The notes under the pieces: generated by a model
The model's input: only the letters and a program-made list of their open reading frames with translations
Databases searched by the model: none
Told to the model about the DNA's origin: nothing
Program-made: the position numbers and the translations under genes
Shown here: positions 2,243-53,100 of the stretch, one piece after another
How positions within the stretch are numbered: the stretch's first letter is position 1
Layout: the number at the start of each line of letters is the position of its first letter
From: Protoeuglena noctilucae
Lineage: Eukaryota
Assembly: GCA_958009085.1 (NCBI GenBank)
Contig: OY253680.1
Span: 186,001-250,000 of the forward strand
Length of the DNA stretch: 64,000 nucleotides
Reading direction: 5' to 3'

Positions 2243-4765
2243 ATGGCGGCCGCTACTGCCCTCGACAAGGCGACCCTGCAGAAGCTCTTCAGCCCCGACT
2301 TCATCATGGGCCGCGTCACGCCGCACATCACGGAGCACTACGACATCAAGGAGACGCTCGGGGAGGGGCAGTTCGGCGTGGTGCGCAAGGCGGTGAACAA
2401 GGAGACAGGGGAGGTCTGCGCCTGCAAAACCGTCACCAAGGCGAGGCTTGGAGCGGGGGGCGAAGATGACGATGTTTGCTGGCTATGTGGGACTCTTCAG
2501 ATGCACCCGAGGGACCACCTGGGGGGACCACCCCGGGTAGGTGTGTTACCCTCACCCCCCGCCCCATAAACCTGCCCCCCCCTTCCCCCCGCAGCGCCAA
2601 GTGCGTTACTTGGAGGAGTTGGAGGACATCCGCCGCGAGGTGAACGTGATGAAGCACCTGGCCGACTGCCCGACCGCGGTTCGGTTCCGCGAGGTGTACG
2701 AGGACAAGCACGCCGTGCACATCGTGATGGAGTACTGCAGCGGGGGCGAGCTGTTTGACCGCATCGTCAAGAAACACAACTACTCGGAGCGCGCCGCGGC
2801 CGAGATCATGCGGCAGATGCTCGAGACGGTTGCCTACATGCACGAGCTGGGCGTGCTGCACCGTGACCTAAAGCCCGAGAACTTCCTGTTCGCGACCCCC
2901 GACGACGACAGCGCCATGAAGCTCACGGACTTCGGCCTGTCGCTGTTCTTCAAGCCTTCCGACGTCTTCCACGACACGCTGGGGTCGGAGCTGTATGCCG
3001 CACCCGAGGTCTGGCCCAAGGTCGTGCGGGGGGCCACGGGGGGGTGGCAGTACCAGAGGCCCAGCGTGAGTGCCGGAGGGAGCGTGCGGGGCTGGGCTGG
3101 GCTGGGTGGGTACTGTCACCCTCTCACCCCACGCGCGCCACGCACCACCCCGCCAACCCATACCGACCACCCCCCCCCCTCCCTGCAGTACACGGAGAAG
3201 GTGGACATGTGGTCGTGCGGCGTCATCCTGTACATCCTGCTCTGCGGCTCGCCCCCCTTCCAGCGCGCCGACGTGGACAAGAAGCTCAACCTGGCGGGCC
3301 CCATTTGGAACCACATCTCCAAGGACGCCAAGGACGTGGTCATGCGGCTGCTGGACCGGGACCCCAAGACGCGCCCGACGGCGCGCGAGGCGCTCAAGCA
3401 CCCGTGGCTGACGGCGGGCGAGCACGTGTCGGACGCCCCGCTCGACTCGGCCGTCGCCGTGCGCATCCAGAACTTCAGCAACATGAACAAGCTCAAGCAG
3501 AAGGCACTGCAGATCATCGCCACCACCATGGACGACTCGGGTGAGGGGGGATGGTTGGGGTGTGGGGGTTGTTGGGCTGCAGCTGCAGCTGGGTACTGTT
3601 GATTGCCCAAGTCGCTGCCTATCTCTCTCATCACTCTCGTCAGTCCTGCTTAAACACACATACCCTTCCCTCCCTCACCTCGCCCACCAACGCACGTACC
3701 ACCCCCCCACCACCCCTCCCACCCCCTTACAGAGATCGAGGGCCTGCGCAACATGTTCGAGGCGATCGACACGGACGGCAGCGGCACCATCACTTTGGAA
3801 GAACTGAAGAACGCGATGAAGCAGTTCAACATGACGATGCGGGACGTCGAGGAGCTGATGGCCGCGGCGGACGTGGACGGCAGCGGGCAGATCGAGTGGG
3901 GCGAGTTCCTGGCCGCCACCATCAACAAGAGCCAGCTGGAGAGGGAGGAGAACATCTACAGGGCATTCCGGTGAGATTGGATACAATGAAGGGATGGGGA
4001 GGGCACAGGGATGTGGTTTATGTTGCTGAGCCATGAGCGGTCATGGCAGTCACCCTTCCTCATGCACTCACTCCCCAACCCTCCCCGACTCCTCTACCCC
4101 AACCTCCAAAAAACCCTTAAAGCACCTCAATCCACTCCCCAACCACCCCCCTCACCCCTCCCTCACCCCCCACGCACCCCCCCCCCCCCGCCCCCAGTGC
4201 CATCGACAAGGACGGCAACGGCGTCCTCTCCCACCAGGAGATCACCGAGGCACTGTCGGACTTCGGCCTGTCGGATTCCGAGATCACGAGCGTGATCCAG
4301 GAGGTGGACGCGGACGGCAACGGGGAGATCGACTACGACGAGTTTTTGACGATGATGAGGTGAGATGTCAGTGACAGTATGGTGGATGGATGGCAGATGA
4401 GGATATGACTAAGTAGATGGCTGTGTGGGTGTATTGACTGTGACGAGTTCCTCGTTGGCGTCAGGCACGACAATGCGGATGGTTGCATAAGTGAATTAAT
4501 ACATCCGTGTCCGTAATTATCCCTCACCACTTCCCCTAAGCCTCCTCTCCCCCACCACCACCCTCCCAGGGGTGCCAACGTGGGCGCGGGCGCGCTGTCC
4601 CGCGCCGCCACGGGATCCTACGGCGAGCCCACCAAGCTGCAGATGCGGCGCAAGGGGGCCATCGGCGTCAACGACACGGGCGACAAGGGCAGCGGGGGCG
4701 GCAACGCGCACGCAAGGGCCGAGAGGGGGGCCGTGGCGAACGGGCACGCCGTGGCGGCCGCATGA
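2243..4765 (+). CDS. Calcium-dependent protein kinase (CDPK), 6 exons
   Basis: Exons 2243-2440, 2595-3065, 3189-3540, 3733-3970, 4198-4359, 4570-4765. GEGQFG, HRDLKPEN, DFG and APE motifs, junction domain (FSNMNKLKQKAL) and four EF hands (DTDGSG, DVDGSG, DKDGNG, DADGNG). Confidence 0.95.
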
Positions 4766-5737
4766 GTGCGCGCCATGGGCTGCAGAGTCGGGTCCATGGG
4801 TCGGGTGCATAAGTTGCACCGTGCACCCTGCTTGCGCCACTGCACCCACCCCGCTTCCGCCACCAGTGCAGGGTTGCATGTCTTGCAACCCACTCAGCCC
4901 CGGCCCTCGCCACTGCGACCCCGGCCCTCGTTTCCTTAGAAACCCCCGGGCTGTCAGGCTGCGTATCCGCCGACCACGCAGCCCAACCACGCAGCCCATT
5001 GCCCACCACGACTGCCCTGCTTAGCCCAGCCACCTGCCCCACACCTCGTCAGCCTGTCAGCTCGAGCGCACTCATGCTTTGCGACCCTAACGCGCCCTTT
5101 CCGCGTCTCATATTTAGAAATCGAGACCTCAAACACAAGACCTCAAACACCACCTGTTAGCTCCAAACTTGATGGCTGGTTGGCAGGTTGGTTGGTTTCT
5201 GGGCCTTTCATGCCCATCACGCCTGCGCCTACGAGCTTTGGCAATGGCGATCACGGCGTGCGATCACGACCGGCCACGCTGATCCTGCTCCGTTCCGCGG
5301 CGTTTGAAAAGGCAACGGCAGCATCATGGCAAGGCCACCGCAAGGCCGGCAAGCGCAGCCAGAGGAGAGCGCTAGCTGGTACGAGGGCGCTGCAAGGGCG
5401 CAGCTGCAGCGCAAGAGCGGTGGTATTGACAGGGCCCGCTGCACCAAGGGCGGTCCAGTACAAACGCGCTGCTATTCAATGTTGCTGACACAAACCGTCT
5501 CTCGCCCTTTGATAGCGAGAGTGTCCCAGCTGCAGTGTGGTGTCCGCATGCTTGGTGTGCGGCCTCTGGCAACTGCTACAGTTACCCTGGGACGTTGACA
5601 GAAGCAAATTAGGGTGCAGAATGCGAAATGTGGCGCAGACTGGGGTCCGTCCATCAATTCTTTGTGAAGCACATTAATGCGTCTCCACCTCAACCTTACC
5701 CCACCACCCCGGCCATCACCGTCCACCCATCCTTTTA

Positions 5738-8440
5738 TCAATCCCCCGTGAACCGCATGTGTGTCTGGACCCCACCGCCACCCCCATCCGCATCGAAGCA
5801 GAATCTCAGGAAGGTCCCCGCCGTCGTAGCCACGTGCAATGCGGGTGCGTCGTCGTCACGCAACGACCCATCGAAGCAAACCTCAGAAGGACCCTCATCC
5901 GGGACCTGTGGAGAATTGGGGTGTGGGTGTGGGTGTGGGGTGATATGATATGACTTGCGAACAAAACCTGCAGCAAGTGATGTTAAGACTGTTTAGAGCC
6001 AAGCACACTGCATCAATCGTCACCTTGAAGTTGATGGACGACCATTGGCTCCGGAAGTAGTCCGGCAGCATGGGCCTGAGCAGCCCCACCACCGCGCTGC
6101 CCTGGCCAAACAGACGATTCGCCAGGCCGGACAGCGGCGTGCCGCCACCGCTGCTCTTGAAGCGAGGGTCGCCTGGGGGGAAGGAGGGGAAGGGGAGTGG
6201 TGAGTGACAGCGGAGGGGAGAGGTGGGAAAAGTGGTGGTTGAGAGTTGGAGTGAGTGGTGGACTTACCCACCCACTCCCCCCACACAGTCACCGTCACCC
6301 TCACCCGCTCCCGCACCCCTCCCTCACCCATCACCACTGACACCCGCTAGCTTACCCGCAAAGGCCGCCCCCGACGTCCCCGCCTCGCTCGCATGGCCGC
6401 TCTCCCGCAGCCCTGGGCCCTCCTGCCCGGAATTTGAAACATCCCCAGACCCCGCAGTGCGCCCCGCCGTGCTTGCTGCACCCGTTGCTTGCCCCGATTG
6501 CTTGCAGTGCGCCCTACTAAGCCCGCCACTTGCCCTGATGTGCCCGTGGCTGCATCCGCGTGTTGCAAGTTGAACACGTGCACTGTCTGTGTGCTCGAGG
6601 ACGCGGCCAGCCACCGGTTCTGCGGATGAGAGCGAGAGTTGAATCATGCACTGGTAACACTGGTAGCCACCCCCTCCACTTGTCCTCAGCTGTGTTGATC
6701 TGTCAAGTTACATTAGGACACCCGACCCCACCATCACCTGCACCACCACCACCACCTCTCACTCCCCTCACCTGTGGCGATATGGCAAGCGAATAAATGG
6801 AAGCTTGCTCCGCCCCCCGCCTCAGCTCATGGAGGCACTCCCCCGTGGCAGTGCGGAAGACCCGAATCAGCGTGCCCTTGACCGATGAGGTGGCGAGGAG
6901 GGAGCCGTCGAGGGACAGCTCGAGGGACCTGGGGGGGTGAGAGTGAGAGCCGTATGATTGGTGAGTGATAATGAGTGAGTGAGTAGTGATGAGTGTGCCT
7001 TTGACGGATGAGGTGGCGAGGAGGGAGCCGTCCAGGGAGAGCTCGAGGGACCTCAAGGGGTGACCGTTTAAGTGGTGAGTAATGAGTTGGGGGTGGGGAG
7101 TGGTAAGTGGTGGTGAGAGGTGAGTGGGGAGTGATGAGTGGGGAGCGGTGAGTGCAATGTCATGTTGTAGCTGTGCCCCCAGATGCAACTCGCCTGATGT
7201 CTGACTGGTGGGCCATCACGACAGCGCCTTTGCGATCACCACTCACCTGATGTCCGACTGGTGGGCGTCGATGAAGCGGGTGCGGCCCTGGGGGGCATAC
7301 CCCGCCTGACCGGGCGCAAGGTCCAAGGGAACGTGCTCCACCCTGACTTGCCCCCTCCGCAGCCCCAGGCACGCCAGGACGCACGCGTCGCGCAGCGAGC
7401 TCTGCGTGCAAGAGGGAGTTGGGAGAGCTGAACGGCGGGATCCAAATCGCACTGCATGGCTGGTTGTAAGCGAACGGGCAGTGAGACCCCCTCACCATGG
7501 CGACCAGTCCCATGGGGTTGTCGAGGGTCTCACTCTCCAACACCTGCGGGGAGTAATTGGTGATAACACAATCATGTCCTCGCGCACCCACACCAGTGTC
7601 CGCGGAAGCAGCGACTCTATCTGCGCTCCACTGCCACCGCAGCACCCGTAGCATTCGCAGCACGTCGACATACATCGCATCTTCCGACCTGCACAGCACG
7701 TTCAGGCGGCACTCACGAGGGACATGTCTTGCAGGCGATAGACGCACACGCGGTGCTGGCACGCAGCGGCCACGGCGTCGTTCCGCATGCGCACGGCCTT
7801 GACCGGAGCGCGCAAGGATACCTCGCAGGTCTGCAAGATAGCAGAAGGCGCGAATCGCCGCAAGTCGCCGCGGCGCGCGCTGCACAGGGTGCTGCCCCAT
7901 TCTGCGGAAAGCCACGCGCGTCAGCCGCGGCCTCGCGTCCCCGCATGCAGACTCCGAAATAGCAACTCACCTCCTGACGCCGCGCGTCGTCCCAAATCAC
8001 CACCTTGTTCGGTAGATAGCGCGGGGACGGGCCCCCGCCCAGGAGCGCCAAGAGCTGGCACTGGAAGAGCATTTCCGATTGCGCGAGCCCACCCCCGCAC
8101 TGCCGTCGGAACGCTTGCTGCATAAGAGAGGTGAATCGCAAGGCGTCACGGCGACATAGCCAGGGATGCCGCCGCGGCGGGGTGCATGGATGTCGGCGCC
8201 ACTGCGGAGCTCGCCTGGAAAGGAGCGCACTGAAACACCGCGAAACCATCCTCCGTCGCGACGCTCAGGAACGTCCCGTTCTGATTGAATCGCACCGACT
8301 GCGAATAGTGCGGGAGCTGAGCGGGCTCACGGGTGGCAGCAACACAGGTCGCCACCGATGAAGCAGGGGCTCATTCGAGATGCGAAGAACAACATCTCGT
8401 TGTTGAGTTCACTCACAAGCACGCGCGACGAGCGCGACAT
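5738..8440 (-). CDS. ATG18: PROPPIN autophagy protein, ATG18a/WIPI3-4-like, multi-exon
   Basis: [54 protein letters not shown] and [10 protein letters not shown] across GT/GC-AG introns. ATG at 8440, stop at 5738. Confidence 0.92.
6865..7053. repeat. 66-nt direct repeat (6865-6930 exonic, 6988-7053 intronic) in ATG18
   Basis: Hand alignment gives 59/66 identity; both copies encode [22 protein letters not shown]. Confidence 0.95.
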
Positions 8441-8816
8441 GTCGTCCGGCCTGGCACGCGATTTTCTGCGAGCTCTGGAGTTGGGCGCCCGACGCGCTCT
8501 CCTGATTAGCTGCCGTGGTGCATCCGACTCGAGGACTCGCCAACCGCTTGGTGGACACCCATCTCGCGCTTGCGACACCACGCGCTTGGCTCTTGCCTGA
8601 ACACAGGCCCTGCCGAAGCACGTAGGTCGCCACCCGTAAGAGTGAGTGTCAGCAACTCCTGTGACACGCAGCATCGCTCGAGACAGCCCGCGTGGGCAAG
8701 CCGGTGGGCTAAGCTTGCGCGCCGGTTGGCGGCCTGGCGGCGCGACAGGGCCCGCGCCTCTCACTGCTGCACAGCTCCCCGCCTCCTCGGTCGATATATA
8801 CGCATTCTCTCCCCGA

Positions 8817-15399: not shown

Positions 15400-18300
15400 A
15401 TGGACTGGGTGAGTTAGTTCGCCTCGAAACCTGCCCCTGGCATCGCGGCGCCCCTCGTCGCCACGCCCGCTCTCCCAGCGAGATGAATTGCTGCGTAGCA
15501 GTCGCGCTCCACGCGACGGGCTGTCGGATCGCGTGCCGCTCCCGATGGCCCTAGACATCGCAGGGCCTGGGCCCTCTGACTAACCGGGCGCTCGCGGCGT
15601 CATAGGCGCACAAATGTCAGCTGCCCGCACGTGGTTGGGTCGCAATAGGCGCACGGACCCCCCTTCCACCCCGCAGACCCAGACGCGGTCGGGGGAGGAG
15701 CCCCGTGACACTCCAGGGCTGGGCGAGCATGAGCATGTGAGTCGCTGCAGCGCCAGGACCCGTGCATGGCTCGCGTGCAGGCCCATACAGCCCCGTGCAT
15801 GGCAGCTGCGGGCGCCAGGGCCGCCGTGCGACCGCGAGGGCCGCGGGAGCGCGACGTCGGGGCTGGGCCCCTCCTAGCCGCGTCTGCGGAGCGCGCCGAG
15901 CCGGACAGGCCATCGGCCGATCGTTCATGTCATTTCGCCTTTTCTCGGCGACACTCGCTGCCCCGCGCGCGAGGCCGCGCCACCAGCTGCTCTGGTCGCG
16001 CATGTTTCGCTGGGCCCCCGGTTGCCCCGCAGAGCGTGGTGGACGAGGAGGTGCTGAAGAGGCTGCGGGAGGCGGAGAACGAGGACAGTGACGACAAGCG
16101 GGACAAGAAGATCAGCCTGGCGAAGCTCATTTTCCGCCTCTTGCTCTGGCTGGCCTCGATCCTGTGCATCCTCATCGGCGCCTTCACGTCCAAGGGCAAG
16201 AACACCTTCAGCACCGATCACTGGCGCTTCTGGGTCGTCGGCGGCCTCGTCATCCCGATATGGGACGTGTCCACGTGGAGTGAGTCTCGCAGCGCTGCAC
16301 CCGCGCGCCTGCACCCGCACGCCTGCGCCTGCGCGCCCGCGCCCCGCCCGGCCGCTTGATTTACTCGCTCTCTTTCTCTCCGCGCAGTCTTCAACGTCCT
16401 CTACGGACTGCTGGAGCACCAGGGCCAGATTTTCACCGACCGTGTGGCCTACTTCCTCATCCCGCTCCGTAACACGCTCATGAACGTCTTCCGGTGGTGC
16501 ATGTACCTCGCCGGATGGGCCAGCGTGATGGCCGTGCGCCACAGGGAGTCCATGTACAGCTACGTGCTGCGGGCGATCGTGTCGGTCGTCTTACTGTGGA
16601 CGGCGCGTGGCCTGGGGATCGCCTTCGCCCGCGGCATCTCCATCAAGTTCTACTCCGCCAACTACTTCACCAAGATGCAGGTCAGGGGCGGGCACGGGTG
16701 GGCATGGTTGGGCTGCCGGGTAGGGGTTCCGCTGCATCGACGCACAACCTTTACAAACTCGTCCCACGCTTTGATCCGTTTCCGCAGGGTTCGATCGAGA
16801 AGGAGTTCTACCTGCACGCCCTGACGCTGCACAAGCCCAAGCCGCGCCCGGCGCCCGCCAAGGGTCCCAGCCAGTACCACTTCGCACGGTCGAGCATGAT
16901 GTGAGTGGCGGGTGGCGATGCGGGGAGAGTCAGGCGCAGGGCCACGGTGTGCCTTGTGTGTGTCTCTTACATAGCAGAGCAGAGCAAAGCAGGATAGACC
17001 CAGGCGTGTGACATGTGACAAGCGACATGCCCAGCTCATCAGCTGTCTCTCTGCTGTCCATGTGTAATGCTCGACACCGTGCCCTTACACCCCTGCCTTG
17101 ACCCCTGCCTTAACACACAACAAACAACAACAACACACACACACACACACACACGCCTGCCTCAAACACAGGAAGATGTTCACGCGGCCTTCCTCCCCGG
17201 ACGCATCTGTGACATCCGGCACGAACGGGCAGGGCCCAGCAAAGACGGTTGACGGCAAGCGTGCGGGGCGGTGGTTCAATGGCGCGTCCCAGCGGCAGCT
17301 GACGGGGAAGGGCCCCTCGCAGCGGCAGCTGGCGATGACGGGGAGCGACACGCTGCGGCCGGTGCCCGAGTCGGAGCCCTCGCGCCTGGGCAGCATGACG
17401 AACGCCGGGGATTTGGAGCGTGGGGTCACGCCGGGGTTACCCGACCGTAGCTTCACCCCTGGCATGGATGGGATGAGCACGGGGCCTACGTCGGGGTTCC
17501 AGACGCCCGGGGTGGAGACGACGAAGTCGTCGTCATCGGTGGACATGAAGGCGCTGCTCAAGGAGCTGCAGGCGCTGGCGTTCATGTGAGGGGCTGCTGG
17601 TGTTGAGGGGGGGTTAATGAGGTGGTGTGTTGTTCATGTGAGGGGCGGTGGGATGGATGTTGAAAAACTGTGAGGGGCCAGGAAGACTGTGATGGCTGTA
17701 GGTCAAGTTGACTCTGTGTTATGCTGAAGCACTGCGCGGCATGAAGCAACAATGTGATGTGCTCCCGCCCGCAGGCAAATCGGGGGCAAGGACCAGGCGT
17801 CGCACATCCTGACCCTGCAGCGCTTCGTCCTGACGCACAAGCCCCAGGCGGCATTCCAGGCCAAGATCGGCAAGGTGTCTGCGTCCAGCACCGCCGAGAG
17901 CATCGCCAAGTCCGCGCACCGGCTCACGAAGGCGAGGGCCGGGGGCGGCGGGACGAATGGGGTTTTGAAATGGGGGGCGGTTGTGGTGTGGGTGACTTAA
18001 TCAGTGGATTGTTGTAATGATAGGGACACTCGCTGAATGTGCATGGGCGAACGATTGACGAATGATGAGGGTGGATGGTTGCTATCCCACTTCCCCACCC
18101 TTTCCCCCATGCAATGCCCCCACTGCTACCCGCGACCGTCACCCACCGTCACTACCCAATGCTACCCACGACCCCCACCCCGCACCCCCGCAGGTGATTT
18201 TCAAGAACCTTAGGCACCCCTCGCGCCCCCACATCACGCGGGACGACTTCGAGGGCGTGCTGCCAAAAGAGATGGTCGAGGAGGCCTTCCAGATGCTCAA

Positions 18301-20234
18301 CCCGGTCAACAACAAGTGCATCATCTTCGAAAGATGCGAGGTGAGGGGCTGGTCAACAATCTTCAACAATGCGGGGTGAGACCGATAGACCCCGTTGCCC
18401 ATGTGCGATGCGAGGTGTGAAGGGTGGGCATCATCGTTAAACACTGTGAGGCAAGACAATCTCGCCGCCTGCCTGCGTTCATATCAATCGCTGCTTTCCT
18501 CACCCGCAGCAAAGCATCAAGGAAATCTTCACGCAGCGTAGGGAGCTCAAGCGCGCCCTCAAGGACTCCAAGACCATGGTCGGGTCACTCAGGTGCGGGA
18601 CAGTAGCGACAGCAAACTTTTACAGTATATACCAGGTGCAGGATGGTCCCTTGTTAGCTACCTTAGCCAACACATGTGATGTCGTGCAATGTGTATCGCC
18701 ATGCTGGGCCCAACGGCCCTGCTCCTACCCCACCCCAACCAACCCCCCGCCCCTCTCCCCCTCCCCCAGGAGCGTGCTGGTGGTGGTGTTTGAGATCGCC
18801 ACCGTGATGATCATCCTTCTCATCTTCCGCGTGCAAGTGGGCACGCTGTGGGTGTCCCTCACCTCGCCCATCCTGGCCTTCACGTTCATCTTCGGCAACA
18901 CCCTCAAGACCATGTTTGAAACCCTGGTCATCATGTTCGGTCCTCATCCCTTTGATGTCGAGGACAAGCTGGTCGTGCCGGGGATCGGGTGGTGCAACGT
19001 GCTGGAAGTGACGCTGGTGAGAGATGAGGGGAGATGAGGGCGAAAGGGTGGTGCAACGTGCTGGAAGTGAACAGCAGACGTGTTTGGAAAGCCATCAATT
19101 AGCGCCCTCCAACCCCCTCACCACCCACACCCACCACCACCCCCCGCAGTGGCAGACGGTGCTGGTGGACTGGCAGGGCCAGCACTGGCACATCCCCAAC
19201 AGCAAGCTCCTGGCCGAGACGATCGTCAACGTCACGCGCTCCGACACCATGGGCGACGAGTTCGCCATATGGGTAGATTTGGAGACGGACTTCAACATCG
19301 TGGACGTGCTGTACGAGGAACTGGACAACTTCCGCAAGGCCAACCCCCAGCATTTCGGGGAGTGGGTCTCGTGAGTGCTTGTGTGCTTTGTGATTGTGTG
19401 TTGTATATTGTGTGTATTGTACATTATAGTTGTACTGAGTGGCATGGGGAGAGTGACTGGGGCGATGGGGCCGCGCAGCATCAGGTTGCTCAGCTAACCC
19501 CACCCTCTCGTTCACCGCACCCTCCACCCCCACTCACCCCACTCGCAGCGTCCGCGTGCAAAAGTGCGTCGAGTCCGGCCTCAAGATCCGCCTGGCCGTC
19601 TACTATGCGTGGGCATTCAACAACGTGGATCTGGGCAAGTGCGGTGACGCCAGGAACCTCATGTTCCGCAAGGTGCTGGAGATATTGCAGAGACACCGCA
19701 TCCGCCTCAGCAACCGGCAGGAGGTGAAGATCACCGACGTGCCCCCCACGCCCAGCACCACCAGCAACAGCATCCTGGACAGGTGAGGAGGGGTTTTTGG
19801 GGATACAAACACTCACCTTCACTGCTACCCCCAACTCTCACCCCCCAACCTCACTGCTACCCCGCCCCCACCCTCACCCTCACCCTCGCCCCCATCCCCA
19901 CCCTCACTGCTACCCTCACTTCCACCCTCACCCCAGGGCATTCGAAGCCGCCGAGCTCCGCCACCGCCACGCCCCCTTGCAACGGGGCCAGGAGGCCTGG
20001 GAACCCCGAGCCACGGTGCGCCCCAGCGGCTTGAGTGCCGAGGAACGTGCTACGGCCGAGGAGATCGCTTTGATCATGGCCAACGCAAGCGCCGCGCGCG
20101 CCGCGGCCAACGCCGAGGTCAACGGATCGAATCTCGCGGGGAATGGGGACCTGGCGCGGGCGTCGGTGCATGGTGCGGGGACGGGGACGGGGACGGACCG
20201 GGTGGACGTGGATCTGGGCCGGAAGAGCTTATGA
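15400..20234 (+). CDS. MscS-like mechanosensitive channel (MSL type, with EF-hand-like segment), about 12 exons
   Basis: LAFTFIFGNTLKTMFETLVIMFGPHPFDVEDKL and IPNSKLLAETIVNVTRS are MscS-domain motifs; several N-terminal TM segments. Start at 15400 is tentative. Confidence 0.9.
17113..17154. repeat. (CAA)n/(CA)n microsatellite in intron
   Basis: acacacaacaaacaacaacaacacacacacacacac read directly. Confidence 0.85.
19845..19935. repeat. Hexamer-like (ccctca/ccccca) intronic tandem repeat
   Basis: Read directly upstream of the last MSL acceptor. Confidence 0.7.
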
Positions 20235-30100: not shown

Positions 30101-31720
30101 AGAAGAGGTTGGCGAGCAATGCGTCGACGGGCATGTACTGCGATCAGACCACGAGAGAGCATGAGTGACGACTGACGCAAGAAGACAGGTCGGCGACCCG
30201 CCCACCTCGACCATGTTCTGCATCAACAAGCAGCAGTTAGTCACTCACATATAACACTCACCATGCTCTGCGTGAAGAAGAAGTAATTGGCCTCCCGGGG
30301 GTCCCCGACACGCCTGGGGTCCGACAGCACATACGGCCACCAGTCCCCGTGCTCCCAGAAGTTCGGCTGGGAACGGAACTGCGGCGGCTGGTCCACCACG
30401 TAAAAGGTAGGCGACCGAGGATCGAACGCGTCGCGCTCGGCGTCGCCGGCATCCGCGCCCGCCGCCCCGCGCACGCCCTTGGGCACGAGGGAGTAACGAC
30501 TGATGTCGTAGTTGACGTCCACGACCGCGCGCCGCGAGTCTCCGGAACCCTCCCACCGCACGGCGCAGTCGATGCCCCAGTAGCCCTTCTCGCACAGGCA
30601 CAGGCCCTGGGGGGACGGGGGCCAGATGGGGCGTAAGAGCCGTGGTAATGCAGGAGCCCCTGTGCAGCGGCATATGCGTGCGTTGAAGATGGGCATTGAG
30701 ATTGGGGACTGGTCGGTGCCAAAGAGCAACGTGCGCTTCTGGGCACCAGTCGCAAGCAAGCTCCTCTCGCCTTGTAGCACGATCCTCGGAAGTTGCACTG
30801 GTTGGGGCAGGACCGCAGGAGCCACTCCCCCTCGCTGCAGCCGCCCGGGCAATGGCAAAAGGGCGGGGTGTTGTCATTGTGGCGGCGGCAGAAGCCCTCA
30901 TGACCACAGCTGCGGGCAGCAAGCGACGGGTGAGCGGTGAGCCCACACCCGCCAGCACCGACGCAGGCCCTGTGCGCTGCAATCCACCAGCCGCCGCACC
31001 TGTTGGCGGTGACGCGGACCTCGGTGCATAGGGACATGTCACGGATCTCCCCCAGCGCGACGCTCACGCTCGTCACGTGCGTGCCCCCTCGAGGCAGCGC
31101 GTGGTCCGGCAAGTCGACGACAGGGTAGCCCTCTTGCATCAGCACCGCCCGGATGCGGTTGCGGTACCTCGCCGCCGTCGGTTGCGCAAAGGCCCCGTCC
31201 AGCGTCGGGTCGTCTACGTCATAACAAAGCCACGCGTGGCCGGAGCGCCCGGCCCAAAATCGGCCCAGCTGCTGCGCGCACGCGCACGTCAGGGGCCCCA
31301 CGATCTCGACCGTGCGCACGAGCCCCGTCTCCGCGAATTCCGCGGCCTCCGACTGCGGATCGGGGTCGGGCAGCGGGCCGGGGAATGTGACGGTGACCGA
31401 GTAGAGGTGCATGCCCTCCGCGGTGAACGGGCGGCCCTCCTCTCCCAGCGAGCACGCCGGTAGGAGGTTTCTGCGGCGCGGGATGGCGTCCGTTGCGCAG
31501 GAATCCGGGCAATCGCTGCAGCATGGCGCGCAGAACATCCATTTCCTCACCGCGAGCAATCGGCACCGCAAAAGCCCGAGATACAGGAACACTCTCGCAG
31601 CAATTCGTTGCATGTCCCACGCCCGCTGCAGCTCCCCGGGCAAGCGCTGTCGGCTCTTGCCGCCAGCGGCAGCCACGCCACGAGCAGCGCTAGGGGCAGG
31701 GCACTGCGCCAAGCCGACAT
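27170..31720 (-). CDS. Exostosin-family (GT47) glycosyltransferase with EGF-like domains and a C-terminal hydrophobic segment
   Basis: Signal peptide; CPGSCSGRGTC...CSCISGFCGADC and CPNQCNFRGSC..GLCLCEKGYWGIDC; RRVGDPREANYFF, EMSKAKFC, GYGARYLNAVLFGCIPV and PFNEHPDIDW motifs. Confidence 0.88.
28882..28973. repeat. About 29-nt unit, 3 copies, spanning a GT47 acceptor site and exon start
   Basis: ggcatgggcagggagttggggtctgcggg repeated with small variations. Confidence 0.9.
29341..29490. repeat. Degenerate 55-60-nt intronic tandem repeat, 3 copies
   Basis: acgagttgg...gagcttgct, acgagtcgg...gatcttgct and acgagttgg...gagcttgct units. Confidence 0.6.
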
Positions 31721-41220: not shown

Positions 41221-44200
41221 ATGCCGGCCTTTGGCGTGGGCCCTGCGCAAGTCGGGGGGGCCATCCCCGCGGAGGGCATCTACGGCGTTTCCCTCGCCTC
41301 CCAATTCAACGGTGCGTGGCCGCAAGGCGCTGTCGCATGGGCTGGTCAAGCCTGCCACGCCTTGCTGGGCTCCCGTGTGTCCCCCGCGCCACGGGTCAGG
41401 GCCGCGTGGCGTCCCAAGCGCGTCTCATGCGCGACTCGGGGCCCCGGTCCGCTGATCCCGCGCGAGGACGAACAGTCCCGGCGAACGGCCCGTCACGTCC
41501 ACCCCACCCTGCGTTCGCAGACCGCGAGGCCGTTTCGCCGGGCCGCTTCGGGAATGGGCTGGTTGCATCATCGAGTCTGGCGGGACCACGTCCATTCCTG
41601 CGGTCGGAGGCCCGCGCCGGGGATGCGGGGGCACCCCCGTCCGCCCTCCACCTCTACCGGACCCGCAAGGCCGCGCCGCACCGCGCCGACGCCTCCGCTT
41701 CGCGCGGGACCCCCACGCCCGGATTTTTCCAGTCTTCCTCGCCGGCCCGCCGCTGGGACCACGCCTCCGCGGCGCCGCCGTACGGGGAAGCGCGCGCCCC
41801 GCCCCGCACCGCCAACTCCGACGCCCCAGGCAACGCCCAGGCGAGGAGTTCGCTTTCATCGTGCGGCCTACTCGCCGTATGACGCAGTGGCCTTCGAACA
41901 GGACCGCGAGCCGGCCACGCTCGGTCCGTGTCCGCAGTTGAGCCCATGGAGGGGCGGGCGGTACCCCGCAGCCCCCTGGGACATCTGGCCCTGGGCAGCG
42001 GTCTCCCGGCGCGCGAGGACAGCAATCTCTCACGCACACGATGCGACCGGGGTGGGGCGCGGGTCAGGGCGCGGTGGGGCAGGGCTTGGGTCCACCCCGG
42101 CTGGGATGGGCCACCGGGACGGGGCGTGGCGGGCAGGAGGCCAACGCAGGTCCGTCGCGGAGGGACGCCCCGGCTGCGGCGCGGGCCCAGCGCGGGCGGC
42201 AGGGTCCGGCGGCGGGGGGCGAGCCCTTCGGTCGCTCCACCGTGGTCGGGAAGGGCGGGGCTGCGGCCGCCGCGGCCGGCCTGGAGGGTCTCCCGGTGCT
42301 GCCTGTGGACCCCGGCCATCGCGGGGCGACCTACGGGGGCCCGGCGACGGGACCGGCTGCTTGCGCACGGCGGGGTGTCGGGCGCCGTGCCTGGGGGAGG
42401 GTCGTACCCTGCCCCGGGGTCCGCGGCGCGGCTGACGGCCATCTACGGCGCAGCGGCGGGGGTTTCCCGAGCGGGCTCGATGGCGGGCGTGGCGCAGTCG
42501 TACCTGCCCATGCCCCGTCAGCCGCCGGCCGCGGCAGGGCCGTTGCACGTCACGCTGCCGGCGCGGCCGCCTTGGCCCGTGGGGTGCGTCGTCGGTGNNN
42601 NNNNNNNNNNNNNNNNNNNNNNNNNNNNNNNNNNNNNNNNNNNNNNNNNNNNNNNNNNNNNNNNNNNNNNNNNNNNNNNNNNNNNNNNNNNNNNNNNNNN
42701 NNNNNNNNNNNNNNNNNNNNNNNNNNNNNNNNNNNNNNNNNNNNNNNNNNNNNNNNNNNNNNNNNNNNNNNNNNNNNNNNNNNNNNNNNNNNNNNNNAGG
42801 CCGACTTGAAGGCCCGGTACGACATCATGGGGATGGTCGGGGAGGGGGCGTACGGTCTGGTGATGAAGTGCCGGGAGGTGGCCTCGGGGCAGCTGGTGGC
42901 GATCAAGGAATTCAAAGTGGAGGACTCGGACCCGGACGCCAAGGAAGTGCGGCGCACGGGTGAGAGGGAGACGGGGGTTGTTGCAGCTTGCAGTGCCATG
43001 GCAAACGACCTGTTGCATGCCAAAACTTTACTGCGCCGGTTGCAACTGCCCCCCCCCCACCCCCCCTCGTTTGCATAAATGATCGCATGCAAAGCCCCCC
43101 TTGTGTAAGCACGCCTGCCACATCGCCCGCCCCGGCTGCAATCCTCTCTCCCCCCTTCCTGCAGCCAAGCGCGAGGTGGCTCTCATGAAGGAGCTGCAGC
43201 ACGACAATGTGGTAGAGTACATCGACGACTTCTACATCGGCCCTAAGCTCTTCATCGTCATGAAGTTCGTGCCGAGGAACGTCCTGGAGGTCTTGGAGTC
43301 CTCCCCGGGGAACCGACTGCCGCGGGAGACGGGTGAGAGTTGCTTGGGAATGGGTGAATGGATATCGGTGACTGCGCGCTTAGCAGGGGAGACGAATGCC
43401 GCTCCTCCCTGAGCCCCCTAGCACTTCTGCCGCGCCATCGCCGCTCTCCGATCCTCAAGCTGCCCATCTCAGCACCCCACCCACCCACCCTCCTCTCGTC
43501 CCCCGCAGTGCGTCTGCTGCTCTGGCAGCTCTGCCGCGCGATCGCCTTCCTCCACTCCAAGGGCGTGGTGTACCGGGACATCAAGCCGGAGAACATGCTG
43601 CTGTCCGACGAGGGAGAGCTGCGGCTGTGCGACTTTGGATTCGCCAGGCGGCTCGACGTCGAGGGGTGCCCCTGGGGGGGGGTGCACGCAGGCCAACGAC
43701 GCCAAGCTCACCGACTACGGTGAGGGTATGCCTGACTTGCCAGTGAATGTGTTGTCTGTGGATTGTGAATGCGAACCTTTCTTCACAAGTGCTTTGACTG
43801 TGTGAGTGTGCGTATCTGCAAAGGACCCCCGCAGCCCCACAGCCACCCCACTAGTTCTTCACCCACCCACCCCCACCCCACCCCCCCCAGTCGCCACCCG
43901 CTGGTACCATGCCCCCGAGCTCCTCCTGGGCCCTCCCTACCGCCGCCAGGGCCACCAGTGGCGCCCCGCATACGGCTTCGCCGTGGACATGTGGGCCATC
44001 GGGTGCCTGGTGGGAGAGCTCATCGACGGCGACCCCGTGTTTCCTGGCGATAGTGACGTGGACCAACTGGACCGCATCCAGAGCCTCCTGGGCCCGGTCA
44101 TACCCGAGCACCTCGAGCAGTGGCGCAGCAACCCCGCCCACAAGAAGGCCAGCCTGGGCCGGGCGGCGAGCGGGCGCAACACGGCGCTGCACCGGCGCTA

Positions 44201-44865: not shown

Positions 44866-47759
44866 TTAGTCGTCGCTGTCGTCTGGTGGTGTCCGGAACT
44901 TGATGAGCGCAAACGCCACGACAACCGTGGCCTCTGCGGTCAAATCAAAGCCCAGGTGGTTGGCGCATGGGTCGCATGGTGCATGGGTCGCATGGCGCAT
45001 GAGTCGCATGGTGCGAACGACGCAGCACTAAGTCATCTTGTCGCCCTTCCTTCACACCCCACCCATCCACTCACCCAGCAGGATGACCAGGACAGGCACA
45101 GCATATCTCGTGTCTCCCCGCCATCCACTCACCCAGCAGGATGACCAGGACAGGCACGACGTATCTCCCCGCATCGTTCCCCATCTGTCGTACCACCGCG
45201 TACCCCACCCAACACTGCGCGACGCCCCCCAGCACCACCAGCCACCCCAGCGTGCGGTGGCCCAATTCAAACACACGTCGTCGACGGTGCAGGGGCTTGT
45301 CCTCTCCCAAAGCCCTCGCGCCCTCGTAGCCCTCTGGCACCTTGGGGCGTGAGAAACCCCACGTCATCTGCGGGGCACACAGGTACATATGTCAAGATCT
45401 GCTCGCCGCCAGTCTAGCGTGCAGACTGCGAGCTTTGCGATCGTGAGTGTGGGTGTAAGTGTGGGTGCGGGTGTGGGTGTTCATGGTCAAGCATTGGATG
45501 GGACTTGCTTGGATCACGGCTGCCGAGAGAAGGGTGAACCCCAGCACGGCGTGGGCACGGCTGAGGGTCCCTGGGTACTTGGGAGACATGACCGTCATGT
45601 AGATGCCTCCTGACACCGCCAGTACCATCGCCAGAGCCTGGACGACCCAGTGGGTGGCAAAGATGCGGTCGCAGCTGCGGGGGTCGCAAGGGCGGCATCG
45701 GATGGTGCTTTGTGCTGGTCGATGCTGTCTCGGTTTGTGCTTTGGAGATGGGCAAGCAATTAGGCAAGCTTGTGCTCTGTGCGGTTCGGTTCGTGCTTCG
45801 TGCTTTGTCGGCAAGCGGTCACTCACGCAAGTCCCTGTGGCAGCCCTCGTCGCGCCAGCATCGCCAGGGAGGCTGAGGGCAGCAGGAAGGCAAAGGGCAG
45901 GGCCAGGAGGCACGCGTGGATGAGGATGATTCTGGCGTTGCGGGTCAGGGGCAAGGACGCGCCACGGCCTGCATGGGCGAAACGAGGCGAAGCGAGGGTG
46001 TGGGAGTTCGGGCCAGCGAACGTGATCGTGGAATGCGATTGCGGAAGCACATGAAGCACCATCAATAAAGAGTTTTAAACATCTCATGCCGCGCCACTCA
46101 CCGATCAGGTCAGGCCCCTCAAACACAAGAGACAGTCGCCCCTTCGCAGCGTGCATCGCGAGCGCCGTCTGTGCCAGCGAACGCCGCTTGGCCGCCTGCC
46201 CCGGCCCCAACGCCCACAGCACGTCGTTGGCCCTCGAAAGGTCCAGCCCGGGCGACTCCTTGGTCGCAATCGTGAACGTGACGGTCATCGTATTGCCCAC
46301 CACCGTCACCGCCCCACCATGCACGGCGACGGCGTCCGTGGGCGTCACCCCATCCACGGTGTACGACGTCATGTGATAGCTCGACACACCGCCCGTCCCT
46401 GGGAAGCCCACCACTGCGTATCCCGGCACCATGTCTCCGGTACTCGACCACCCGAACGCCAGGTATGAGGCTGCAGGGCCCTGCGGAGTCGATCGGACCC
46501 ACCCCATTGTGCCACGAAGCACGGGCCACGCCACCATGCAAGGTGTTGCAATGCAGGGGCCACGTGCCATCTCCTGCCAGGGCAATGCATAATCCGCAAT
46601 CTTGCCTGTAAAGCGAGGGTGATGGCGCCGTTGGGGTCGCGGCGCGCGGCCTGGGCGTCGGACCAGTGCAGCACGACGTCGCTCGCCAGAGGCGCCATAC
46701 AAGCGAAACCACCCAGCGTGGACGGGGTGCTGTATCCGCAGGCGGCAGACAGACCGCCGCTGCTGGAGGGCGGCACGAGCCACGACGGCTGCGTGAAGGC
46801 AGGGACCGGAGTGGGGCTGGCCGACGAGGCGGGCGTGGGCGCTGGGGTGGCCGCTGCCGCTGCCGTGAAGGCAACGCTTCCGGCGTACTGCGCGAAGCGG
46901 TGCTGCCCGGACGCGAGGCCCATCGGGGCCGAGGTGCCCGATCGACCAATTGCCACCCACAGGTTGTTGCCCTGGGTGGCCGAGAGGCTTTTGGCCGGGG
47001 CCTGCGAGGGCGTCGACAGGATTCGATCTGAAACCCCGTCAGTGGTGTTGAAATACGCATATATTGGTAGTGATGGAATGGCTAGCGGGTCTTGATCGAC
47101 GCACGGGCGGCCCTTGGTTGGTGAAAAGGTGAGGTAAGAAGGGGGCAAGCGCTCACGTTGGGTATGCTCAGCGTGAGCGTGGCGCTCCATATCATGACGC
47201 CGTCCTGGGTGCGCGTCTGCGCGTCCGTGATGGTGACGTCCGAGGTGGACACCGGGGTCACGTGGCCCTGCCCGCGGTACGTCCCGACGAAGCCTGGGGC
47301 GCAGCACCGCAAGGAACCGTGGGCACGACTTGCCGTGCCTCGAGAATTGCGCCGGGCGCGCGGGCGGGCCTCACCGGTGCTCCCGTCGTTGTAGCCCAAA
47401 ATAATGTACGAGCCGTCCATGCCGCTCGTGCCCCCGAAAGCCACGGCGGAGTAGCTGCTGGGCTCCGACTCCATCCCCAGCTGCACGGTAGGCTCGACGC
47501 CCGCCGTGGGGATCCAGTGAATGGCCAAGTATGGAGAGGACATGACTTGGAGCTTGCATCCGCCTGCGATGGCGGTCTTCGGTTGTCGGGACGAGGCATC
47601 GGCGCGCAATGATGGGTATTGGGGGGCTTGAGCGCCCAACTTGCCTGGAAATACCGCATCGCTTGGTACGCAAACGGCCAACACTGAGCTCAGCAAGCAG
47701 CCGGCGAGGGCTGCTGCGAAGAGCATCGCAGGCCCCGGCGGGGCCCACGCCCTATCCAT
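44866..47759 (-). CDS. Two DOMON domains plus cytochrome b561 (CYBDOM-type)
   Basis: Signal peptide; DOMON1 (IHW, AVAFGG.SGMDGS, GQH) and DOMON2 (LHW, YLAFGWS..GDMVPG, AMH); b561 with four His (ILIHAC, ATHWVVQ, RAHAVLG, LGHRTLG). Confidence 0.9.
44963..45013. repeat. gcatgg-based intronic tandem repeat (16-nt period)
   Basis: gcgcatgggtcgcatggtgcatgggtcgcatggcgcatgagtcgcatggtgc read directly. Confidence 0.85.
45063..45157. repeat. 37-nt perfect direct repeat of exon end plus donor (45063-45099, 45121-45157)
   Basis: ccatccactcacccagcaggatgaccaggacaggcac occurs twice. Confidence 0.95.
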
Positions 47760-50182: not shown

Positions 50183-53100
50183 TTAGGGTTCTTTGCCGTG
50201 GTTCCCTTTGGGCCCCATAGGTGCGTGAGGGGGGCCATCCATACTGTGCACGGCCAGACGCCCCACTGACCCCCCCGCAACCGGCCCAGCCTCATTCCCC
50301 GCCGCCCCCTCCGTCATCCGGTGCGGGGCAACCCCGCGGTCTGTCGTCCGCTCCGTGGTGCGCCCCCGCGACCCCACCTCCGTCACACGCACGGTCGTGC
50401 GCTCCGTCATGCGCCCGGCCCTGGGACCCAGGGCAAAGGCCCGCTGCGACCCGGGCTTCGTGCGGAGCGACCCGGACGCCAGGATGCCCCCGCTCTCCTG
50501 CGTCCGCATCGGCCGGACGATGTCCGGGGCCTCGATGTCCGTCGGCGCCAGGACCACACCCGCACTCGACTGCGGCACGGGGCCGACCTCCCGGGACCCG
50601 CCGCTCCGCTGGGGCGCGGACCGGGCCATGAGGAGCTTGCCGACCGTCTGGCTGGAGTTGGCGCCTTGTAAGGGCATCACGAACATGTCCTCGTTCTGGT
50701 TGGCCTTGTTATACACTGACTGGCGAACGCAGATGGCCTGGATGTCGGACCCTAGTGCCCCGTGCAGCGCGCCGCTCATCCCGAGCGCCCCTGCGGACGG
50801 ACGGCGGAGCGGCGGCTTGAGACGCAACGCGGGCGCGGCGCTGGAGCTGGAAACAATAACGAGTTCTGGCTGCTGTGGCTGGCCACGCCATCGCAACCCT
50901 GACAACCTCTTCGCATTGCACACTGTCGCGGAAAGTCACCTGTCGACACGGCTGGTAGCAGCGAGAGGGCCGTCTGCACGGGTCCCAGGAAGCGCAGCAG
51001 TGGCCGCCTTGCGCCCGCCACCGTGACGAGCGCGTCGCCCGCCGCAGCCGCCAGCTTGCACCGGAAGATGCCCGCCTGACACAGGGCCGACACGTGCGAA
51101 CTGGCGCGCGCCAGCTCCTGGAGGGAGAAGTGGAGTGCCTCGGCCAGGACCTGGGGAGGTGAAGCGATGTTTCGAATCAGATGGCGAAAGTGAGACTATA
51201 AACGCCCATGCTTGTGACGGAGGGCCAGCCACCAACGCGCCCGTGTGAGTGATGCGCCTTGCATCACACCACCCGTGCATCTCTCCACGCCATCCGCACG
51301 CAGAGCGCCAAAGAGAGGACCGTCGCCGGCCCCTTCACTCACCAGGCCCCGCTCCTCAGGCCGATCCATCGTCTCGTCGATGTTGAGGACCCCCAGCACC
51401 AATGCGGGCGTGCCCGTCTCGAGCCTCAGCGCGCCCGCCGCATCCATGATCCGGTCCACCACGCCGTCGATCTCGCGAATGGCCTCCAGGCAGTCGATGG
51501 CCTTGTGCCGGACCAGCAGGGCCGTGACCTGGGGTAGCAGGGGTGGGTGTGGGGGGGGGTGTGGGTGGGAGAGGTGTGGAAGGGGCGTGTGCGAGGGAGA
51601 GGTGGGTGGGAGAGGAGTGTTGTGGGGCACGCCAGACAGCAAACGGCCGTTGCACAGATGGAGTTGGCGTGCAGTGCAATCCGCCTGCCTTTCCCATCCC
51701 AACACCGCCACTCGCCTGGGGCATGTGGAGAGCAACAGCCAGTCACATGCTTATAACCATCATACGCCAATTGCAAAACTGCCACTCGCCTGGGGCATGT
51801 CGAGGGCGATGGTCGTGAGGCCGTGGACGGCGCGGGCGTACTGGGGCCGGGACGCGTCTGTCGGCATGCCAGAGTCCCCAGACATGCCGCCCTCGTCGGT
51901 CTGCGCCAGAGCCCCGAACGTCGCCGGAGTGCCTTTGTCCTCACGACCCCGCGCCTCCCGGCCCCGCGCGTCCCTGCCCCGTGCCACCCGCTTCCTCTCC
52001 CGGTCCTCCACCTGCTGCAGCGTCACGCCTGGGAGACGAGGAAAGCAAAAGAGCGGTTTCGCAAGGCGGATGGGACTCAGTCGGGGGAGACAAGCTGACT
52101 GCCCATCTGCCGACACACCGCACATCTGAACCCAGTCAGCCAGGCCCCGCCTGGCTGTGCATGGGCCACACACGCATGCGCATGCCATGCAGTGCTTGTG
52201 CCCTCACCTTGCAGGACCTGCTTGGCCGCGTCCAACGGCAGGATCTGCCCCAGCAGCATGTCGCGGGAGTAGCGCGTGATGCCGCTGACGTGCCTCATGG
52301 CCGCAAACTCCACGGCCGCGCACACGGACCCGACCACCAGGAAGAACTGCCGCGAGAACACGGCTCTGTCGATGTCCGGAACAAGGCCGATCGGGGCGCC
52401 CAGCAGCAGGTAGCACCCGAACCCAAACGTGAGGAGGTTGAAGAGCCATGAGAATAGGACCATGGTGGCGCCACGGTACATGCTGTCCTGGTCCTCCGAG
52501 AAACTCTTGGCGCGACGCATGACGACCGAGATGGGCCCGCCGTGGAGGAGGTGGGAGAAGACAAAATAGGAGACGGGGGCCACCAGGCCGAGGAGGACGG
52601 CGCCGGCGCGGTCGGCGGGGGTGGGCATGGAGAAGGACTGCGGGGGTGGGGAGGGGTGTGCGGGGGTGGGGACGTGTGTGCGGGGGTTGGGGAGGGTGTA
52701 TGCGGGGATGGGGAGGTGTGGGGAATGCATGGGCTGGTGCGGGGGCGAGCCACTGCACTCAGCTTCGTTTCCTGGCGCCGGCATTTCTGCCAGTAGTATG
52801 CATGTCAGACGCACCGGTGGCACGACGTCTCGGTAGTGCGTGACCCGCACGAGGAAGAGCTCGCCCACGATGAAATAGACGACGCCCGGGAACACGGCAG
52901 CGGCGGCCTCGAACCATGCGGGAATGTTGACGCCCGCGTTGGCGTAGAGGGCGGCGACGGCGGCGAACACCCCAGAGAAGAAGGCGCGGTAGGTGAGGAA
53001 TTGGGAAGAGGAGAGGTTGCCGCCGTGGACGCTCATGCCGCCCACGAGGTAGCCGACGTGGTGGAGGGAGAGGACGGCCTGGGACGCGAGCTGCGGGGGC

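Follow-up and report, generated by a model that had tools for sequence, protein, structure and literature searches.

Long introns in a subset of the genes of Protoeuglena noctilucae gather local direct duplications of approximately 25-155 nt, and many of these carry a copy of the adjacent exon end into the intron (hereafter, an echo). In 1.05 Mb of this genome, including the 64-kb stretch of DNA analyzed here (the window), 53 junction-anchored echoes were found in 51 of 1639 introns, as compared with 0 of 4894 controls. By extrapolation, approximately 1300 echoes would be expected in the whole 26 Mb. The echoes bear a coding signature, a feature overlooked in an earlier sequence-only reading of the window.

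Gene models were obtained with our own predictor, which yielded 1953 introns in the sample, 1928 of them with complete N-free flanks; the filters for exon length and coding content were passed by 1466 or 1639 introns in two separate counts. Exon-end probes of 45 nt were compared with the adjacent intron, and matches scoring at least 28 were counted. Matches to the 3'-terminal 45 nt of the upstream exon were found in 41/1466 introns, and matches to the 5'-terminal 45 nt of the downstream exon in 15/1466, whereas the controls gave 2/14582 per side (exon ends of other genes), 1/7544 per side (non-adjacent exons within the same gene), 2/1088 (exon positions -90 to -46), and 1/1466 and 0/1466 (inverted probes). 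The sequence-only reading had proposed comparing introns with their own flanking exon ends and with non-adjacent exons as a check; the enrichment is clear, echo likeness being restricted to the adjacent exon in this comparison, and the recurrence it reported holds genome-wide in the 1.05 Mb scanned. The 53 echoes comprise 41 donor and 12 acceptor echoes (asymmetry, P = 8e-5), are spread over many chromosomes, and consist of echoed exon ends of 13-66 nt in units of 46-155 nt.

Within the window, each junction probe was compared with its own intron against a null of approximately 1600 other junctions. Among 102 introns, 10 donor-side and 4 acceptor-side probes reached P ≤ 0.01, where about 1 of each was expected. 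Copies had been named in at least six genes (CDPK, ATG18, MSL, GT47, CYBDOM and cyclase), and all of them are present: 9/10 beat matched controls at P ≤ 0.004, the CDPK copy being weak. Pfam confirms CDPK, while MscS-like (MSL) and DOMON (CYBDOM) appear only below the Pfam cut-off, and four GT47 exons and three cyclase exons gave no Pfam match; the names ATG18, GT47 and cyclase are labels of the sequence-only reading, used without confirmation here. The features are the following:

4433..4465, plus strand: CDPK intron 4360-4569, decayed likeness to the upstream exon end 4328-4360; weak, as P = 0.02 falls short of significance among 204 tests
6988..7057, minus strand: ATG18 acceptor-side echo in intron 6929-7246, corresponding to the first 21 codons of exon 6772-6928; P = 0.0006
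6865..6934, minus strand: real ATG18 acceptor and exon start, source of the acceptor echo
7188..7213, minus strand: ATG18 donor-side echo in intron 6929-7246, source 7241-7266; P = 0.0006
17632..17646, plus strand: short donor echo in MSL intron 17586-17774, 6 exon nt and 9 intron nt, source 17580-17594; P = 0.0025
18351..18424, plus strand: two partial donor echoes in MSL intron 18341-18509, at 18351-18380 (with an 11-nt gap) and 18407-18424; P = 0.0037
19046..19070, plus strand: exon stretch 18987-19011 copied without mismatch over 25 nt in MSL intron 19017-19149; P = 0.0006
28910..28960, minus strand: GT47 intron 28904-29116, acceptor and exon start in two tandem copies with a 29-nt unit; P = 0.0006
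30206..30238, minus strand: decayed donor echo in GT47 intron 30138-30261, source 30257-30288; P = 0.0006
43418..43454, plus strand: decayed copy, in kinase intron 43333-43508, of 43522-43558 in the downstream exon; P = 0.004
45058..45109, minus strand: donor echo in CYBDOM intron 44934-45132, 35 nt of exon end and about 17 nt of intron, source 45116-45167; P = 0.0006
51707..51733, minus strand: GC-donor echo in cyclase intron 51529-51789, source 51781-51807; P = 0.0006

The kinase echo was absent from the sequence-only list. At MSL 19046-19070 the copy reported there is real (25/25 identical), but it ends 5 nt before the junction and includes no splice site. The ATG18 acceptor echo carries a GAG pseudo-acceptor, has a unit of 123 nt, and differs from the exon only synonymously (7/7 differences); the donor echo of the same intron consists of 20 nt of exon end with 1 silent change and a GC pseudo-donor. 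For the acceptor echo, the only one searched in this way, no third copy was found in the genome, where introner-type mobile introns would form a dispersed multi-copy family, and a paralog was rejected as its source.

As had been claimed, echoes lengthen introns. An echo intron exceeds its gene median by 102 nt and falls 1.5 nt below it once spacer and echo are subtracted (n = 53), which is the one-unit lengthening expected of a same-molecule tandem duplication. In genes with long introns, local duplication adds approximately 100 nt to about 7% of introns (44/631). GC3 does not differ between echo genes and other genes (0.87 vs 0.876). A junction-centred or splicing-linked process, as suggested from the sequence, is unsupported, since ordinary local repeats abound within long introns: purely internal repeats occur in 99/534 long echo-free introns vs 2/534 cross-intron controls. 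With 57/119 internal repeats set aside as low-complexity, 62 remain beside the 41 donor and 12 acceptor echoes; uniform placement would give internal, donor and acceptor copies at about 2.5:1:1, so that any excess of donor echoes is modest at best. A special mechanism targeting junctions is not required. As junction-spanning duplications would survive when one intact junction remains, the junction focus is probably mostly a filter, and the “survivable outcomes” offered as an alternative by the sequence-only reading are plausible.

The coding signature was evaluated after trimming 3 distal bases from every echo. Exon and echo differ at 52/249 fourfold sites and 61/934 zero-fold sites over the 53 echoes, a ratio of 3.2 (gene-level bootstrap CI 2.4-4.5). 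Neutral decay leads to a ratio of about 2, and the excess over a generous twofold null has P = 0.002; under codon-bias equilibrium, 27.8 fourfold differences would be expected against the 52 observed. The ratio is 3.0 without the window echoes (n = 48), 3.6 without contig C13 (n = 34), 3.5 for blocks of at least 30 nt (n = 25) and 4.5 for isolated differences (P = 0.0009), while twofold transitions give 3.2 (P = 0.07 vs the twofold null). Multi-nucleotide clustering was rejected as a cause, with 28 adjacent pairs vs 23.6 expected. Moreover, at NCG codons silent G>A changes number 6/48 vs 0/49 for replacement C>T (P = 0.012), whereas NNC-G shows no such contrast (7/52 vs 4/51). Simulated same-molecule duplication followed by neutral decay, passed through the same detector, gave ratios of 1.4-2.2 and attained 3.2 in 0-2% of 150 runs per setting; a rate at exon fourfold sites about 3x that of neighbouring intron sequence was sufficient by itself to reproduce the observed ratio. 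Overall, the codon-blind decay expected of a same-molecule tandem duplication (ratio at most about 2) is not what the echoes display.

The intron spacers of the echoes point in the same direction. Spacer class could be assigned to 51/53 echoes, the spacers of the other 2 being too short; 11/51 are full tandem units, and in 40/51 the spacer is duplicated weakly or not at all, in place of the head-to-tail repeat of the whole unit expected of same-molecule duplication. Twenty-nine spacers match no better than unrelated introns and, with spacers of at least 40 nt, 15/37 echoes have at most one zero-fold difference yet a spacer that matches like an unrelated intron. The fourfold to zero-fold ratio is 1.7 in the 11 full tandem units, as against 3.7 in the 40 whose spacers match poorly, a borderline contrast (tandem 10:17 vs non-tandem 68:46 synonymous to non-synonymous, P = 0.051). 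Plain slippage, which the sequence-only reading had entertained, fails on the silent-site excess and the unduplicated spacers, neither of which it had noticed. Spacer mismatch is not special to echoes, however, since 23/31 internal repeats with a spacer likewise have a poorly matching one. In the 21 echoes with a recognisable spacer, mismatch is 0.20 in the spacer, 0.20 at fourfold sites and 0.07 at zero-fold sites. Past the echo, GC content is close to normal (0.55 vs 0.58), and the spacer is AT-richer (0.49), in the tandem class too (6/8). The distal edge is sharp, identity beyond the block being at background, and a decayed extension past the echo was looked for by gapped extension and not found (P ≤ 0.05 in 3/44). 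A direct repeat with a sharp new junction, as in aborted SDSA followed by end joining, is thus what is seen.

Based on these results, the explanation we favour for most junction-spanning units, at about an even chance, is that break repair used a diverged allele as the template for the exon end and the beginning of the intron and was then completed by end joining, stranding the old exon end. The break would fall inside the exon, 20-60 nt from the junction, and the broken end would invade the homologous allele, the conserved exon being the sole place where this could happen. Copying would then run through the exon end and splice site into approximately 50 nt of the other allele's dissimilar intron; re-annealing would fail, and end joining would link the product to the opposite side of the break. 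The working exon end would now be the new copy, with the old exon end and its whole intron stranded as the echo. Because both copies would have been coding until the event, silent differences would exceed neutral decay by approximately 0.10 per fourfold site. The minority of full tandem units may result from the same repair from the sister chromatid, or from slippage. Capture from an allele is consistent with the normal length of introns after subtraction of the unit and with the difference in ratio between the classes; against it, no diverged allele was found (see below), recombining alleles would have to differ at approximately 10% of silent sites, a high value, and the AT-richer spacer of the tandem class is not predicted. 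By extension, and with a likelihood slightly short of even, the introns may be a fossil record of recombination between alleles with approximately 10% silent divergence in a now clonal-looking alga, in which failed inter-allelic repair at the boundary of exon and intron homology would recurrently add approximately 100 nt per event and swap exon ends between lineages.

It is possible, if somewhat doubtful, that tandem duplication within one chromatid (slippage or sister repair) occurs at a high local rate, passes a selection filter and is followed by neutral decay of the echo; the silent excess would then stem from differences in rate outside the model, and rapid gain and loss of indels would account for the spacer mismatch. 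Internal repeats as common as echoes, the 11 full tandem units with their low ratio, the clonal look of the sampled populations (see below), and mismatches in spacer, fourfold and zero-fold sites near the expected 2:2:1 all fit this account. Nevertheless, the observed ratio is rarely simulated unless exon silent sites evolve 3x faster, and the tandem class suggests no such speed-up; in addition, 15 nearly intact echoes adjoin unalignable spacers, and the NCG asymmetry also disagrees, even though NNC-G is flat.

Splicing of the echo introns bears on whether the echoes are under selection. Splice-site scores lie in the range of real donors for 33/41 donor echoes and in the real range for 5/12 acceptor echoes, but use of the decoy sites foreseen by the sequence-only reading does not appear in RNA contigs, which join only original sites in the 2 echo introns covered, although contigs drop rare forms. 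The gene models were checked against RNA within 4200-17000, where in run X9 the CDPK intron 4360-4569 is spliced at its original sites, and RNA contigs use the original ATG18 acceptor. Post-duplication selection keeping echoes compatible with the protein, through minor alternative splicing, decoy-regulated intron retention or echo-exon recombination returning letters to the protein, appears unlikely. It would account for the coding signature itself and the donor-like scores, and the ATG18 echo acceptor, if used, would bring in 123 stop-free nt with the frame kept. However, unit lengths have no frame bias (remainders 0/1/2 = 20/16/17), only 8/53 echo sites are in frame and stop-free if used, and an AG at the distal edge, read by eye, is present in just 2/41 donor echoes, which therefore cannot be alternative exons; furthermore, recombination frequent enough to matter would probably first delete the repeat. 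Tandem mutually exclusive exons were rejected on these same counts and on the lack of an RNA-contig joint, and intron gain by proto-splice-site duplication was rejected because the introns that contain the echoes still use their original splice sites (2/2 RNA-covered).

Splicing-linked or RNA-templated repair writing exon ends into the adjacent intron, the alternative raised by the sequence-only reading, is very improbable. Matching often fades 5-20 nt beyond the splice site and donor echoes outnumber acceptor echoes, as this process would have it, but beyond the echoed donor, identity is higher than for unrelated introns at the majority of 30 positions, which implies a template containing intron sequence. 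Copies of spliced exon-exon junctions, which cDNA or RNA templates would leave, amount to 4 weak matches in 1639 introns, none convincing and two of them already counted as donor echoes. Moreover, an RNA template from the same gene would yield no silent excess, and the asymmetry may reflect greater harm from an upstream decoy AG, given the fewer acceptor echoes that score in the real range.

An assembly artefact merging two haplotypes or strains is hardly credible: silent-only differences resemble two haplotypes and the assembly has gaps, but a single 12.8-kb contig of metagenome run X5, a possible assembly source, spans 4200-17000 with 0 other letters and 0 gaps, the stretch is contained in eight DNA or unlabelled runs of two studies (six at 0.97-1.00), and no second haplotype is seen at depth 15. 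Read support extends to the CDPK and ATG18 echoes, the only ones covered, and all of the 1062 words sampled from 3001-13000 (1.00) occur in each of four runs of another study. Over 4200-17000, no second haplotype and no more than a few single-letter differences are seen in runs X5, X7, X9 and X13 (three studies); the sampled populations look clonal. X7 (share 0.63) and X13 (0.10) were rejected as diverged strains, their coverage being patchy instead, and runs X18-X24, with the same species label, contain 0.00 of sampled words, which counts neither for nor against diverged alleles. No diverged allele was found in the runs over 4200-17000, in metagenome scans that may omit near genomes (no relative with the MSL exon; 9 loci of only 34-56% identity with the CDPK exon), or in the CDPK protein cluster, which holds no allelic variants, only identical products and one 79% relative. 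The duplication had been called ongoing, but no presence/absence variation was seen.

The searchable literature (titles and abstracts, few subscription journals) yielded no description of intronic exon-end copies with a synonymous excess. The closest known system, in the available text, is the C. elegans helq-1 mutant, where aborted SDSA resolved by polymerase-theta end joining leads to tandem duplications (PMC8654963), a precedent for direct duplications made by this route. Direct duplication of the copied tract and a sharp junction are common to both; the tracts from helq-1, a repair-mutant background, range from approximately 100 bp to 10 kb with a median near 1 kb and are not described there as diverged, whereas the units here measure 46-155 nt, lie at splice junctions of a wild genome and carry allele-like differences. 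Tandem duplication of a proto-splice site has been linked to intron gain or sliding (PMC2891723; Hellsten 2011 via bioRxiv 10.1101/051292), and it likewise duplicates exon sequence with a splice motif, one copy becoming intronic, as outlined in PMC2891723; here there is no new intron or shifted junction, the original sites still being used (2/2 RNA-covered). In the parts available, Drosophila Y-linked genes harbour duplicated exon subsets attributed to MMEJ (PMC8794474), again partial duplicates within or beside functional genes and ascribed to end joining, but as whole exons on a chromosome without a homolog, while the present copies are exon ends of 13-66 nt that show a silent-site excess and are distributed over many chromosomes. 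A green-algal precedent is offered by allodiploid Auxenochlorella, in which diverged haplotypes recombine mitotically (PMC12636532); the available account gives approximately 2.7% divergence, mosaic haplotypes and LOH, and describes no exon-end duplications, and here no second haplotype is seen.

The echoes bear on how introns grow longer and on how traces of cryptic sex or hybridisation might be recognised in one haploid genome. If the silent signature stems from allelic capture, counting echo differences by codon position would allow past outcrossing and the divergence of alleles to be assayed from one genome in any intron-rich microbe. Moreover, the many strong donors that lie tens of bases downstream of the real ones, apparently without being used, constitute a natural test set for how the first 5' splice site wins out.

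Every exon copy named by the sequence-only reading, in the CDPK, ATG18, MSL, GT47, CYBDOM and cyclase genes, is present in the sequence, and nine of the ten outscore approximately 1600 foreign junctions at P ≤ 0.004, with CDPK at P = 0.02. Across the window, 14 of 204 junction tests reached P ≤ 0.01, including three further introns that the sequence-only reading did not list:
Window 21434-21579, minus strand: junction similarity, P ≤ 0.01 in the junction test
Window 6620-6771, minus strand: junction similarity, P ≤ 0.01 in the junction test, partly low-complexity
Window 52638-52814, minus strand: junction similarity, P ≤ 0.01 in the junction test, partly low-complexity

We then focused on a sample of 1.054 Mb (the window and 990 kb more of the same genome), in which a self-trained gene finder predicted 1953 introns. 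Matches were found on the donor side (41) and the acceptor side (15) among 1466 introns, against 1-2 per 7,500-14,600 controls. A stricter search for gap-free, junction-anchored matches (1639 introns, 4894 controls) recovered 53 echoes, 41 at donors and 12 at acceptors, spread over 51 introns of 31 genes, and none in the controls; exon-end echoes are confirmed genome-wide. They are 13-66 nt long (median 29), with a median spacer of 53 nt between junction and echo, and are almost restricted to long introns of lower GC: in long-intron genes 44 of 631 introns carry one, vs 6 of 860 in other genes, and 9 of 18 blocks have none. On the window's contig, C13, two genes at 174000-178100 and 141800-144500 have echoes in several introns (strict counts of 5/16 and 4/13 introns), more densely than in the window, and are the most suitable loci for further study.

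The interpretation given in the sequence-only reading is partly supported. Its claim that this process lengthens introns holds, as an echo intron exceeds its gene's median by 102 nt and falls 1.5 nt below it once spacer and echo are taken out. The decoy splice sites proposed alongside exist as sequence, with scores in the range of real sites for 33 of 41 donor echoes and 5 of 12 acceptor echoes. At the two echo introns covered by RNA contigs, joints use the original sites only, although contigs lose rare forms and minor use would be compatible with this. Echoes as alternative exons were rejected, their sites being unused in RNA contigs at those two introns and 8 of 53 being open and in frame. 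Moreover, junction targeting proved unnecessary: internal direct repeats occur in 99 of 534 long echo-free introns vs 2 of 534 cross-pairs, 62 internal repeats that are not low-complexity were found in 821 introns, and uniform placement leads one to expect internal, donor and acceptor copies at 2.5:1:1. Exon-internal duplications would be purged, and a conserved exon copy would remain recognisable for longer. The median unit (spacer plus echo) is 88 nt, vs 42 nt for internal repeats. Examples of the background duplication process are the direct local repeats off exon ends in the window, with periods of 16-57 nt, at 20502-20655, 22081-22164, 29354-29498 and 44961-45014.

The surprising part, missed by the sequence-only reading, is a silent-site signature that is statistically solid in this sample. 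The ATG18 acceptor echo, which is removed by splicing in an RNA contig and has no paralog in the genome, differs from its exon at seven sites in 21 codons, all seven synonymous. Pooled, the 53 echoes show 87 silent differences (pS 0.25) and 71 replacement differences (pN 0.064), and they differ at 52 of 249 fourfold and 61 of 934 zero-fold sites (ratio 3.2, bootstrap CI 2.4-4.5); the silent excess is approximately 0.08-0.10 per fourfold site. Six echoes have at least two silent and zero replacement changes, and three show the converse. At twofold third positions, transversions were seen at 1 of 194 sites vs 29 of 934 zero-fold sites. Divergence of approximately 6% at zero-fold sites, approximately 21% at fourfold sites and at least 20% in introns, with many gaps there, is what alleles or close orthologues typically show, not what a copy decaying since birth would. 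In addition, the spacer match is weak in 40 of 51 classifiable units, 29 of which do not exceed the level of unrelated introns. Of 37 echoes with a long spacer, 15 have almost intact zero-fold sites although the spacer itself is unalignable.

Based on these comparisons, we hold with about even confidence that most echoes are born of repair with a diverged homolog as template, followed by end-joining. In the steps we infer, a break within the exon, close to the junction, would let the broken end enter the homolog via the conserved exon; copying would run over the splice site into dissimilar intron, and failed re-annealing would lead to end-joining, so that the resident exon end stays behind as intronic sequence. 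The features seen in the units are direct orientation, a sharp distal edge, addition to an intron of normal length, an AT-richer spacer and the coding signature. Echoes work like repair-born tandem duplication; in C. elegans, aborted SDSA closed by polymerase-theta joining yields direct duplications (PMC8654963), and diverged haplotypes are known to recombine in a green alga (PMC12636532). They differ from intron gain via proto-splice duplication, as presented in PMC2891723 and bioRxiv 10.1101/051292, and titles and abstracts of open-licence papers yielded no description of this pattern. Against homolog copying, spacer mismatch is also present in 23 of 31 internal repeats having a spacer, tandems likewise show an AT-rich spacer, and the 21 echoes whose spacer is recognisable come close to simple-duplication expectations. 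Moreover, no diverged allele was found at window 4200-17000, where four runs drawn from three studies barely differ, nor any close relative in two metagenome scans.

Simple duplication combined with unmodelled rate differences is a tentative alternative, on the unlikely side. It fits those 21 echoes roughly and the 11 full tandems, in which the spacer is duplicated too: their fourfold to zero-fold ratio is 1.7, as it predicts, vs 3.7 in the remaining units, a class difference that is borderline (P = 0.051). However, a neutral intronic copy of an exon tolerating silent changes only should give a ratio of about 2, and simulated copies passed through the same detector gave 1.4-2.2; 3.2 was reached in ≤2% of runs, except when silent sites of the exon ran three times faster. 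Selection acting after duplication is improbable, as the units show no frame bias and the open, in-frame ones number just those eight. RNA-linked repair, related to the splicing-linked repair mechanism suggested by the sequence-only reading, is very improbable, as no convincing spliced-junction insert was found among 1639 introns; echoes as cDNA insertions were rejected on the same absence. An assembly artefact is hardly credible: a metagenome contig covers window 4200-17000 with zero differences (its run may be a source of the assembly, according to a flag), and all sampled words of window 3001-13000 are present in four runs of a second study, which rules out assembly error for the CDPK and ATG18 echoes.

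The window's sequence is found in marine metagenomes and metatranscriptomes, and over window 4200-17000 wild samples of 2016 and 2022 (three studies) are almost letter-identical to the assembly, which suggests a lineage of very low diversity; seven runs labelled as the same species have almost no words in common with the assembly. The genome comprises 27 contigs (26.3 Mb, GC approximately 65%), the window being positions 186001-250000 of C13, with assembly gaps at about one per 100 kb, such as the 200-N gap at window 42598-42797 that breaks a protein kinase gene in its 5' part. By gene content the genome is that of a green alga; among named chlorophytes, a CDPK exon scored best against Pedinophyceae sp. 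YPF-701, whose 60% identity is too weak for placement.

The splicing of the CDPK gene is confirmed by database proteins that are 100% identical to its product. Among 14 listed joints from RNA runs over window 4200-17000, 11 match predicted introns and the remaining three sit upstream of predicted gene starts; the sugar transporter and MSL genes have longer 5' ends than modelled (RNA-contig introns 12455-12533, 15408-15676 and 15737-16032).

In animals and plants, roughly 1% of donors are GC. Here, GC instead of GT donors make up 374 of the 1953 predicted (19%), far above that level, which PMC3167603 also gives for human (approximately 1%), and the GC donor of the minus-strand window intron 8118-8214 was confirmed by an RNA contig. 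In the genome sample, genes form a region-clustered gradient between short GC-rich introns (approximately 90-110 nt) and long introns with more AT (160-250 nt), the long ones having G-rich 5' ends and C-rich 3' ends.
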